Assembly (NCBI GenBank): GCA_032718475.1
Contig: JAUCBJ010003901.1
Span: 1 to 64,000 of the forward strand
Reading direction: 5' to 3'
DNA: 64,000 bases
DNA from: Nemertoderma westbladi
Taxonomy: Eukaryota; Animalia; Xenacoelomorpha
Part shown: positions 3,582 to 64,000 of the stretch, piece after piece
Layout of the letters: each line of letters starts with the position of its first letter
Numbering within the stretch: the first letter of the stretch is position 1
The notes under the pieces: model-generated
Seen by the model: only the letters and a program-made list of their open reading frames with translations
Told to the model about the DNA's origin: nothing
Database searches by the model: none
Made by a program: the position numbers and the translations under genes

Positions 3582-3979
3582 CCACTCACTAATAGGTAAG
3601 TCCTAATTCGGCTGCTAGCTAACCCGTTTGTTGGTCCACTCACTAATAGGTAAGTCCTGGTTCAACTGCTAGCTAACCCGATTGTTGGTTCACTCACTAA
3701 TAGGTAAGTCCTGGTTCAACTGCTAGCTAACCCGTTTGTTGGTTCACTCACTAATAGGTAAGTCCTGCTTCAACTGCTAGTTAACCCGTTTGTTGGTCCA
3801 CTCCTCTCAATAATAGGTAAGTCCTGATTCAACTGCTAGCTAACCCATTTGTTGGTCCACTCACTAATAGGTAAGTCCTGATTCAACTGCTAGCTAACCC
3901 GTTTGTTGGTCCACTCACTAACAGGTAAGTCCTGGTTCAACTGCTAGCTAACCCGTTTGTTGGTCCACTCACTAACAGG
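3582..3979 (+). repeat. 54-bp tandem array (7 units plus a partial) made of the VMAT exon 3' end and its 5' splice donor
   Basis: Units start at 3582, 3636, 3690, 3744, 3798 (+5 bp), 3857, 3911 and 3965. The unit reads CTG GTT CAA CTG CTA GCT AAC CCG TTT GTT GGT CCA CTC ACT AAT AG|GTAAGTC = [15 protein letters not shown](R), which precedes [IV]GYSIP in VMAT proteins. GTAAGT occurs at 3596, 3650, 3704, 3758, 3817, 3871 and 3925. Confidence 0.93.
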
Positions 3980-4186
3980 ATATTCATACAACTATACGAC
4001 AATTCATGTTATTATTACAATTTCTTTCCGAAATATTGCTCTTTTCGAACTAATAAAACCTCAAGATACATAGATAGGTGCTGCACTTTAAAGTACATTA
4101 CTGATCCTTTTGGTATGTTTACACTCACTATGTTCCCCCTAGACTTTATTTACACACAGTTAGTTTTATAAATATTATTTTAAATG
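3980..4186. other. Unique AT-rich intronic spacer
   Basis: Non-repetitive with no ORF. No exon is needed here because ...TN(AG) joins (G)VGY directly. Confidence 0.65.
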
Positions 4187-59200: not shown

Positions 59201-62200
59201 ATAACTACCCTTGTTTACTTATAGTGTGTTTTTGTTTACAGTGTTCGCCTTTGGCTATAACTACCCTTGTTTACTTATAGTGTGTTTTTGTTTTTAGTGT
59301 TCGCCTTTGACGAGAACTTCCCTTGTTTACTTATAGTGTGTTTTTGTTTTGTTTGCCTTTGGCGAGAACTACGCTTGTTTACTGATAGTGTGTTTTTGTT
59401 TACAGTGTTCGCCTTTGACGAGAACTACCCTTGTTTTCTTATAGTGTGTTTTTGTTTGCAGTGTTCGCCTTTGACGAGAACTACCCTTGTTTACTTATAG
59501 TGTGTTTTTGTTTACAGTGTTCGCCTTTGACGAGAACTACCCTTGTTTACTTATAGTGTGTTTTTGTTTTGTTTGCCTTGGACGAGAACTACCCTTGTTT
59601 ACTTATAGTGTGTTTTTGTTTTGTTTGCCTTTGACGAGAACTACACTTGTTTACTTATAGTGTATTTTTGTTTACAGTGTTCGCCTTTGACGAGAACTAC
59701 GCTTGTTTACTTATAGTGTGTTTTTGTTTTCAGTGTTGCCTTTGACGAGAACTACTCTTGTTTACTTATAGTGTGTTTTTGTTTACAGTGTTCGCCTTTG
59801 GCGATAACTACCCTTGTTTACTTATAGTGTGTTTTTGTTTACAGTGTTCGCCTTTGGCGATAACTACCCTTGTTTACTTATAGTGTGTTTTTGTTTTTAG
59901 TGTTCGCCTTTTACGATAACTTCCCTTGTTTACTTATAGTGTGTTTTTGTTTACAGCGTTCGCCTTTGGCGACAACTACCCTTGTTTACTTAAAGTGTGT
60001 TTTTGTTTTGTTCGCCTTCGGCGAGAACTACCCTTGTTTACTTATAGTGTGTTTTTGTTTTCAGTGTTCGCCTTTGACGAGAACTACCCTTGTTTACTTA
60101 TAGTGTGTTTTTGTCTACAGTGTTCGCCTTTGGCGAGAACTACCCTTGTTTACTGATAGTGTGTTTTTGTTTACAGTGTTCGCCTTTGGCGATAACTACC
60201 CTTGTTTACTTATAGTGTGTTTTTGTTTTTAGTGTTCGCCTTTGACGAGAACTTCCCTTGTTTACTTATAGTGTGTTTTTGTTTACAGCGTTAGCCTTTG
60301 GCGACAACTACCCTTGTTTACTTATAGTGTGTTTTTGTTTTGTTCGCCTTCGGCGAAAACTACCCTTGTTTACTTATAGTGTGTTTTTGTTTTCAGTGTT
60401 CGCCTTTGACGAGAACTACCCTTGTTTATTTATAGTGTGTTTTTGTCTACAGTGTTCGCCTTTGGCGAGAACTACCCTTGTTTACTGATAGTGTGTTTTT
60501 GTTTACAGTGTTCGCCTTTGTCGAGAACTACCCTTGTTTACTTATAGTGTGTTTGTGTTTTTAGTGTTCGCCTTTGACGAAAACTACCCTTGTTTACTTA
60601 TAGTGTGTTTTTGTTTACAGTGTTCGCCTTAGGCGAGAACTACCCTTGTTTACTTATAGTGTGTTTTTGTTTACAGTGTTCGCCTTTGGTGAGAACTACC
60701 CTTGTTTACTTATAGTGTGTTTTTGTTTTCAGTGTTCGCCTTTGACGAGAACTACCCTTGTTTACTTATAGTGTGTTTTTGTTTACAGTGTTCGCCTTAG
60801 GCGAGAACTACCCTTGTTTACTTATAGTGTATTTTTGTTTACAGTGTTCGCCTTTGGCGAGAACTACCCTTGTTTACTTATAGTGTGTTTTTGTTTTCAG
60901 TGTTCGCCTTTGACGCGAACTACCCTTGTTTACTCATAGTGTGTTTTTGTTTACAGTGTTTGCCTTTGGCGAGAACTACCCTTGTTTACTGATAGTGTGT
61001 TTTTGTTTTCAGTGTTCGCCTTTGAGGAGAACTACCCTTGTTTACTTATAGTGTGTTTTTGTTTACAGTGTTCGCCTTTGGCGATAACTACCCTTGTTTA
61101 CTTATAGTGTGTTTTTGTTTACAGTGTTCGCCTTTGGCGATAACTACCCTTGTTTACTTATAGTGTGTTTTTGTTTTTAGTGTTCGCCTTTGACGAGAAC
61201 TTCCCTTGTTTACTTATAGTGTGTTTTTGTTTTGTTTGCCTTTGGCGAGAACTACGCTTGTTTACTGATAGTGTGTTTTTGTTTACAGTGTTCGCCTTTG
61301 ACGAGAACTACCCTTGTTTTCTTATAGTGTGTTTTTGTTTGCAGTGTTCGCCTTTGACGAGAACTACCCTTGTTTACTTATAGTGTGTTTTTGTTTACAG
61401 TGTTCGCCTTTGACGAGAACTACCCTTGTTTACTTATAGTGTGTTTTTGTTTTGTTTGCCTTTGACGAGAACTACCCTTGTTTACTTATAGTGTGTTTTT
61501 GTTTTGTTTGCCTTTGACGAGAACTACACTTGTTTACTTATAGTGTATTTTTGTTTACAGTGTTCGCCTTTGACGAGAACAACGCTTGTTTACTTATAGT
61601 GTGTTTTTCTTTTCAGTGTTCGCCTTTGACGAGAACTACTCTTGTTTACTTATAGTGTGTTTTTGTTTACAGTGTTCGCCTTTGGCGATAACTACCCTTG
61701 TTTACTTATAGTGTGTTTTTGTTTACAGTGTTCGCCTTTGGCGATAACTACCCTTGTTTACTTATAGTGTGTTTTTGTTTTTAGTGTTCGCCTTTGACGA
61801 GAACTTCCCTTGTTTACTTATAGTGTGTTTTTGTTTACAGCGTTCGCCTTTGGCGACAACTACCCTTGTTTACTTATAGTGTGTTTTTGTTTTGTTCGCC
61901 TTCGGCGAGAACTACCCTTGTTTACTTATAGTGTGTTTTTGTTTTCAGTGTTCGCCTTTGACGAGAACTACCCTTGTTTACTTATAGTGTGTTTTTGTCT
62001 ACAGTGTTCGCCTTTGGCGAGAACTACCCTTGTTTACTGATAGTGTGTTTTTGTTTACAGTGTTCGCCTTTGTCGAGAACTACCCTTGTTTACTTATTGT
62101 GTGTTTTTGTTTTTAGTGTTCGCCTTTGACGAAAACTACCCTTGTTTACTTATAGTGTGTTTTTGTTTACAGTGTTCGCCTTAGGCGAGAACTACCCTTG

Positions 62201-64000
62201 TTTACTTATAGTGTGTTTTTGTTTACAGTGTTCGCCTTTGGCGAGAACTACCCTTGTTTACTTATAGTGTGTTTTTGTTTTCAGTGTTCGCCTTTGACGA
62301 GAACTACCCTTGTTTACTTATAGTGTGTTTTTGTTTACAGTGTTCGCCTTAGGCGAGAACTACCCTTGTTTACTTATAGTGTGTTTTTGTTTACAGTGTT
62401 CGCCTTTGGCGAGAACTACCCTTGTTTACTTATAGTGTGTTTTTGTTTTCAGTGTTCGCCTTTGACGCGAACTACCCTTGTTTACTTATAGTGTGTTTTT
62501 GTTTACAGTGTTTGCCTTTGGCGAGAACTACCCTTGTTTACTGATAGTGTGTTTTTGTTTTCAGTGTTCGCCTTTGAGGAGAACTACCCTTGTTTACTTA
62601 TAGTGTGTTTTTGTTTACAGTGTTCGCCTTTGGCGAGAACTACCCTTGTTTACTTATAGTGTGTTTTTGTTTACAGTGTTCGCCTTTGGCGAGAACTACC
62701 CTTGTTTACTTATAGTGTGTTTTTGTTTTCAGTGTTCGCCTTTGACGAGAACTACCCTTGTTTACTTATAGTGTGTTTTTGTTTACAGTGTTCGCCTTAG
62801 GCGAGAACTACCCTTGTTTACTTATAGTGTGTTTTTGTTTACAGTGTTCGCCTTTGACGAGAACTACTCTTGTTTACTTATAGTGTGTTTTCGTTTACAG
62901 TGTTCGCCTTTGGCGATAACTACCCTTGTTTACTTATAGTGTGTTTTTGTTTACAGTGTTCGCCTTTGGCGATAACTACCCTTGTTTACTTATAGTGTGT
63001 TTTTGTTTTTAGTGTTCGCCTTTGACGAGAACTACCCTTGTTTACTTATAGTGTGTTTTTGTTTTGTTTGCCTTTGACGAGAACTACCCTTGTTTACTTA
63101 TAGTGTGTTTTTGTTTTGTTTGCCTTTGACGAGAACTACCCTTGTTTACTTATAGTGTATTTTTGTTTACAGTGTTCGCCTTTGACGAGAACTACGCTTG
63201 TTTACTTATAGTGTGTTTTTGTTTTCAGTGTTCGCCTTTGACGAGAACTACTCTTGTTTACTTATAGTGTGTTTTTGTTTACAGTGTTCGCCTTTGTCGA
63301 GAACTACCCTTGTTTACTTATTGTGTGTTTTTGTTTTGTTTGCCTTTGGCGAGAACTACGCTTGTTTACTGATAGTGTGTTTTTGTTTACAGTGTTCGCC
63401 TTTGACGAGAACTACCCTTGTTTTCTTATAGTGTGTTTTTGTTTGCAGTGTTCGCCTTTGACGAGAACTACCCTTGTTTACTTATAGTGTGTTTTTGTTT
63501 ACAGTGTTCGCCTTTGACGAGAACTACCCTTGTTTACTTATAGTGTGTTTTTGTTTTGTTTGCCTTTGACGAGAACTACCCTTGTTTACTTATAGTGTGT
63601 TTTTGTTTTGTTTGCCTTTGACGAGAACTACCCTTGTTTACTTATAGTGTATTTTTGTTTACAGTGTTCGCCTTTGACGAGAACTACGCTTGTTTACTTA
63701 TAGTGTGTTTTTGTTTTCAATGTTCGCCTTTGACGAGAACTACTCTTGTTTACTTATAGTGTGTTTTTGTTTACAGTGTTCGCCTTTGTCGAGAACTACC
63801 CTTGTTTACTTATTGTGTGTTTTTGTTTTTAGTGTTCGCCTTTGACGAAAACTACCCTTGTTTACTTATAGTGTGTTTTTGTTTACAGTGTTCGCCTTAG
63901 GCGAGAACTACCCTTGTTTACTTATAGTGTGTTTTTGTTTACAGTGTTCGCCTTTGGCGAGAACTACCCTTGTTTACTTATAGTGTGTTTTTGTTTTCAG
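38203..64000 (+). repeat. Satellite B: 56-bp (and 52-bp variant) tandem array, >25.8 kb, roughly 465 monomers; unit is the splice acceptor plus the 5' start of the next VMAT exon
   Basis: Consensus TGTGTTTTTGTTTACAG|TGTTCGCCTTTGGCGAGAACTACCCTTGTTTACTTATAG. After the AG it reads (T)TG TTC GCC TTT GGC GAG AAC TAC CCT/GCT TGT TTA CTT ATA = (L)FAFGENY[P/A]CLLI, the expected continuation of VMAT (FAFxxxYxxLxxAR). The first acceptor AG is at 38216-38217, and the array runs off the window. Confidence 0.96.

Follow-up and report, generated by a model that had tools for sequence, protein, structure and literature searches.

How can a gene whose introns contain hundreds of copies of its own splice sites still give a correctly spliced message, and how did these copies arise? 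This question is raised by a 64,000-nt stretch of the Nemertoderma westbladi contig JAUCBJ010003901.1, hereafter called the window, in which tandem repeats account for 94% of the sequence. All coordinates refer to its forward strand. The window carries a 59-bp coding exon of a VMAT gene (SLC18A1/A2-like) and, on its two sides, arrays that repeat the ends of the neighbouring exons together with the adjoining splice sites. Array 1 repeats a donor and satellite B repeats an acceptor. A third array, satellite A, lies inside the intron between array 1 and the exon. With a probability of about 82%, we hold that the junction arrays are ordinary small duplications across exon-intron boundaries that were filtered by selection and grew by unequal exchange as neutral minisatellites of the kind called mirages, in a VMAT gene that is spliced.

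Array 1 (3582..3978, plus strand) has a unit of 54 bp. Tandem Repeats Finder (TRF) reported it at 3582-3979 with a period of 54, 7.3 copies and 91% matches. The unit consists of 10 intron bases starting with GTAAGT and the 44-nt tail of the upstream VMAT exon. It straddles the exon-intron boundary with 44 exon and 10 intron nucleotides, and this is the anatomy of a mirage. Seven full copies of the tail and seven GTAAGT donors (at 3596-3925) are present. The last tail copy (3935..3978, plus strand) and the preceding one, two of the seven, are identical over the 33 comparable nucleotides to the spliced contig described below. The final copy stops at 3978 without a donor, and the left end of the array is truncated by unrelated sequence. 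Past the last copy, the VMAT frame runs on without a stop through 64 codons of AT-rich DNA (3977-4171), a length that was reached in 179 of 20,000 shuffles; when compared with the 59-bp exon, this stretch showed no similarity. It is probably open by chance and would be relevant only if its AG serves as an acceptor.

On the other side of the exon, satellite B (38203..64000, plus strand) has a 56-bp unit and continues past the end of the window. TRF counted 466 copies with a period of 56 at 38203-64000. Here, the unit is composed of a 17-nt intron end with its AG and the 39-nt head of the downstream exon, so that it straddles the intron-exon boundary as in a mirage. The splice signals are repeated but not all intact. 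At least 465 copies of the exon head were found over the 25.8 kb before the array runs off the window; an AG precedes 378 of these 465, and 79 units are shortened to 52 bp and have no AG. The fraction of units with an AG was 0.61-0.67 in the first 5 kb, compared to 0.82-0.91 in the eight full bins beyond. Within 372 full-length units, the AG columns were conserved to 0.99 like most other columns, and there is therefore no sign that the acceptors were purged by point mutation. Only four of the 465 heads are identical to the 30 nt seen in the transcript, and three of these four belong to the first ten units. The array has a region of 108-bp dimers near its 5' end and higher-order periods of about 1.7-4.9 kb.

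The earlier proposal that both arrays, with units of about 54-56 bp, originated at exon boundaries is borne out by this anatomy, array 1 being an exon tail plus donor and satellite B an acceptor plus exon head. In the dimer region at 39317-40970, where one unit with an AG alternates with one without, the exon frame stays open for up to 550 codons because a period of 108 bp is divisible by three. The head of satellite B ends with CTnAT, the A of which is located 21 nt before the end of the AG in the next unit; we take this to be a loose and weak branch-point-like motif. Each unit could then be a self-contained acceptor, which may explain the viability of a duplication that took in no more than 17 intron bases. 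We also considered that the 39-nt head acts as a micro-exon in a gain of introns. Most units have a GT after head position 38, but splicing to the AG at the head end would lose one base and shift the frame, and this was rejected as a normal route.

The exon between the arrays (38115..38173, plus strand) lies between CAG and GTGAGT and is present in the window as a single copy. It is followed by its donor GTGAGT, the unique start of the downstream intron and the first acceptor copy (38174..38217, plus strand), a segment of 44 nt that corresponds to the length of the intron when the array is collapsed. When the reading frames were compared with the PDB, the exon matched 13 sequences, all VMAT1 or VMAT2 (best E 0.0029), and the array-1 frame likewise matched 13 sequences, all VMAT (best E 0.00031). 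The two matches adjoin each other in 8tgg, with array 1 at residues 93-109 and the exon at 109-130. The satellite-B head alone gave no PDB match at E<=10, and its identity therefore rests on the spliced contig. Tail, exon and head together make up 142 nt or 47 codons that are free of stops, with junction phases 2 and 1. Pfam gave no match for the two VMAT pieces, and protein database searches for VMAT relatives gave no match among 42 candidates in one case and none from a single candidate in the other, which is weak evidence. Judged by its sequence, the gene is a member of SLC18/VMAT (SLC18A1/A2-like), as the original prediction had claimed, and this identity is established for the tail and the exon. 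A search for tail, exon and head elsewhere in the window, on both strands, revealed no further copy; therefore, the two authentic neighbours of the exon are not part of the window.

To follow the message, we turned to the five sequencing runs filed under one organism label, none of which is recorded as RNA, and four of them (X1 to X4) were compared over 38070-38262. X4 had a single contig over this region, 1846 nt in length with a depth of 62.7. It covers 38112-38173 only, without a difference, and continues into the array-1 tail at its upstream loose end and into the satellite-B head at its downstream one. With 464 nt before the exon and 1320 nt after it, the contig fits a near full-length VMAT message. 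X4 had no cover of the intron or of satellite B, whereas X1, X2 and X3 covered satellite B deeply. X4, which had been guessed as 'DNA?', is therefore RNA-like, and we infer that its contig is spliced mRNA. The predicted in-order splicing of array-1 tail, 59-bp exon and satellite-B head is found in this contig, in a stop-free frame. The peptide of the original prediction agrees with the joined frame apart from its leading L, which is read from bases on the intron side of the unit and may not be exonic.

The satellite itself is not an artefact of the assembly, since its head-to-tail unit joints were found in X1, X2 and X3, which represent two samples and two studies, and the exon, the short intron and the first unit of satellite B lie together on one contig of X1. 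Contig depths differ between the runs but are not copy numbers. In X2 and X3, satellite B was present at great depth, yet no contig covered the unique exon or intron. This gap could be explained by the library type, by filtering or by a spread of the satellite to other loci.

What would happen if the copied splice sites were used? For all seven donors of array 1, read-through meets an in-frame stop at once. Among the 378 AG decoys of satellite B, 367 lead to a stop within 200 codons. The frame remains open over 226-550 codons for another 10, all in the region of 108-bp dimers, and the remaining one is at the window end. Pseudo-exons of up to 300 nt would keep the frame without a stop in only 71 of 1857 possible cases. 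The use of decoys is thus predicted to be mostly destructive, and most of its products would be degraded on account of a premature stop. The real exon may be chosen by a pairing of acceptor and donor across the exon and, for donors, by a preference for the most upstream site as in human F7. The decoys are probably ignored by splicing, and the arrays are likely a harmless by-product of DNA duplication.

Satellite A (4187..38082, plus strand) was of interest for the origin of the arrays, as it has a 54-bp unit like array 1 and fills about 34 kb inside the intron. It contains 607 anchors without interruption and shows higher-order periods, for example of 2424 and 3505 bp. On its left, it is joined to array 1 by a unique intron remnant of 208 bases (3979..4186, plus strand), which includes a degenerate satellite-A copy at about 4137-4175 with a score that was reached in 2 of 500 shuffles. 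This degenerate copy at the left edge indicates that satellite A originated within the intron. On its right, the unique intron end of 32 bases (38083..38114, plus strand) provides the pyrimidine tract and the CAG acceptor of the 59-bp exon. The possibility that satellite A is a third mirage, derived from the head of the 59-bp exon, was rejected; the local alignment was not significant (267 of 2000 shuffles). The satellite-A unit and the exon have a 10-mer in common, and this length was reached in 41 of 3000 shuffles. As far as the sequences can tell, satellite A has no significant exon origin. An exact 2556-bp repeat pair occurs in satellite A at 13095 and 16600 (region 13095-19155) and a 1292-bp repeat pair in satellite B at 47417 and 49693, and both may be either very recent block duplications or duplications made in the assembly.

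From the anatomy of the arrays, the assignment of tail and exon to VMAT and the one correctly joined transcript contig, we infer the following origin. The ancestral introns would have been short. A duplication of about 55 bp inside the longer intron would have given rise to satellite A, and duplications across a junction to array 1 and satellite B. A duplication that crosses a junction would rebuild one intact exon with its splice site, which would open a donor-side array and close an acceptor-side one. Such a duplication would be tolerated because one intact exon is regenerated; a wholly exonic one usually would not. The arrays would then have expanded by unequal crossing-over or by slippage with block duplications, leaving higher-order periods and copies of the transcript type near the array edges. 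The few copies that equal the transcript are indeed found close to those edges, on the sides away from the presumed real exons. The kilobase periods in both satellites point to block duplication by unequal exchange. Once the arrays are collapsed, 44 nt are left of one intron and about 300 nt of the other, assuming no later deletion. A 56-bp duplication cannot fit into a 44-nt intron without crossing a junction, so that 100% of the coding-neutral placements overlap one, and by the same arithmetic about 30% of the coding-neutral 54-bp duplications in an intron of about 300 nt cross a junction. A special process seeded at junctions is not needed to explain the arrays.

Several points weigh against this origin. 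As neither real flanking exon is part of the window, we presume which copy is the 'first' and which the 'last'. The ancestral lengths of 44 nt and 300 nt depend on the assumption that nothing was deleted later. Array edges have been altered, since the last array-1 copy has no donor. With two of the three arrays derived from a junction, the locus is also compatible with a real bias. The regular mRNA is represented by a single contig of a single run labelled 'DNA?', in which rare isoforms would stay hidden; contigs drop rare variants, and a low level of decoy use is invisible in them. The downstream exon is visible for 30 nt only, and its head alone has no structural match. Finally, the human 6-16 and CBS genes use the nearest pseudo-sites (PMC1557585).

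The original prediction had gone further and proposed a recurrent, junction-seeded amplification. In this case, a boundary-specific process such as splicing-coupled R-loops, mRNA- or cDNA-templated repair or breaks at nucleosome edges would seed junction duplications above chance in the lineage. Two of the three arrays do cross a junction, and they do so at the boundaries of consecutive exons. However, both units contain intron bases and thus stem from duplicated genomic DNA and not from spliced mRNA. A unit of this size is also found in satellite A, which has no junction origin, and the unit size is therefore a property of the locus or the genome and not of the junction. As geometry and selection alone predict the 100% and about 30% overlap for the two introns, the proposal of a dedicated process is not supported, and we regard it as unlikely. 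The decoys might instead be functional. The AG/GTAAGT sites of array 1 could act as recursive splice sites with zero-length exons for an intron of more than 38 kb, or the length of an array could tune VMAT output via decay. All six internal AG/GTAAGT sites that were tested have a branch-point-like YTRAY at -31 to -36, and the 79 units of satellite B without an AG are enriched near the real donor. Yet AG/GT arises automatically when the copied exon ends with AG, and the pyrimidine tract is weak, with a T content before the array-1 AG of 0.29-0.35 compared to 0.47 at the real acceptor and 0.59-0.65 at the satellite-B acceptors. The units without an AG go back to one deletion that spread in a dimer and are not independent events, and the sole transcript contig contains no decoy sequence. 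A function of the decoys is accordingly very doubtful.

More improbable still is that this VMAT copy is decayed or a duplicate, overrun by satellites, while the transcript stems from an intact copy elsewhere, or that satellite B has spread to other loci. This would account for a window that is almost entirely satellite, for the scarcity of heads that match the transcript exactly and for X2 and X3, which are deep in satellite B and have no piece over the exon. The exon, however, agrees with the transcript at all of the 62 nt compared and has kept both splice signals, and the holes in X2 and X3 prove nothing because filters leave records out. The duplication of junctions in a spliced gene, followed by neutral growth, remains our preferred explanation.

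Tandem arrays that span a splice junction are already known, with 3-25 units, and what is distinctive here is only the scale. The idea of a new phenomenon was therefore not sustained, the class having been described and named in PMC3087553, PMC3902484 and PMC1557585. Amphioxus mirages are tandem duplications across an exon-intron boundary in Adh3, the globins BflGb6 and BflGb9, troponin C and PGBD5; they occur at 5' and 3' boundaries and leave splicing undisturbed (PMC3087553, PMC3902484), and the edges of the clusters are excluded from homogenisation (PMC3087553). Like the VMAT arrays, they affect donors as well as acceptors, keep AG or GT in many of the units but not in all, yield a normal mRNA and have edge units that escape homogenisation. 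BflGb6 is given with 3 and 6 units, whereas satellite B has at least 465 units over 25.8 kb and higher-order periods; Adh3 was left out of this size comparison. Among human variable number tandem repeats (VNTRs) at junctions, PMC1557585 describes intron 7 of F7 (37 bp, 5-9 units), 6-16 (25 pseudo-sites), intron 13 of CBS (15-20), LMNB2 (10-15) and intron 4 of PDGF (16-18), and the splicing of F7 uses only the donor that lies furthest upstream. As in array 1, the first unit of these VNTRs spans the exon-intron boundary and the identical donor pseudo-sites are mostly silent. The VNTRs described there are on the donor side with at most 25 units, whereas satellite B is on the acceptor side and about 19 times larger. 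For human paralogs, PMC2812944 describes internal tandem repeats at exon-intron boundaries that lengthen introns; unlike the VMAT arrays, these have units of about 30 bp in four copies on average and lie in segmental duplications.

Introns inflated by satellites in an expressed gene have a further parallel in Drosophila. The intron repeats of kl-3 and kl-5 are simple and not known to derive from splice junctions. These introns are reported to be gigantic, megabase-sized and filled with satellites (PMC6508621), whereas the VMAT introns measure tens of kb and one of their satellites is built from the gene's own acceptor. A literature search for a VMAT array or a junction array of satellite scale found none, with most subscription journals outside its coverage.

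The segment upstream of array 1 (1-3577) is GC-rich and unrelated, and it has long open reading frames (ORFs) on the minus strand. Those of 371, 268 and 179 aa were recorded, one with a 33-bp repeat that encodes a charged, coil-like stretch. A tandem repeat of 39 bp with 4.7 copies (758-941) lies within the 268-aa ORF, and the ends of 3040-3577 are bounded by TGT and ACA. In Pfam, two of the four upstream ORFs had no match and one had only two sub-threshold repeat matches, with no passing match. The ESM Atlas search with the 371-aa ORF returned no usable match, and a zinc-knuckle motif was looked for in 1-3577 and not found. The segment is likely a mobile element that cut array 1.

By themselves, the VMAT arrays do not demonstrate a new mechanism of amplification. 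It is the size of satellite B, and only this part, that is likely to surprise specialists. With at least 465 units compared to at most 25, it is the largest junction-derived array among the published cases compared. No fewer than 378 decoys with an intact AG are spread over its 25.8 kb, a scale about 19 times the largest count in these cases. For annotation, the locus is a warning, as gene prediction and read mapping can both be misled where an exon is partially copied hundreds of times. Since satellite B is of satellite scale, a working neurotransmitter-transporter gene would have to pass over hundreds of acceptors that are nearly identical, one of them only 44 nt from the donor. The length of an array or the use of decoys could then be a heritable dial on VMAT output, with the array-1 AG/GT units as recursive splice points, but we think this improbable. 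The locus also offers a test bed for the choice of the 3' splice site, where intron definition or a preference for the nearest acceptor would select the copy 44 nt from the donor and exon definition the last copy more than 25 kb away. Taken together, our results indicate that a mirage can reach the size of a satellite in a gene that still gives a correctly spliced message.

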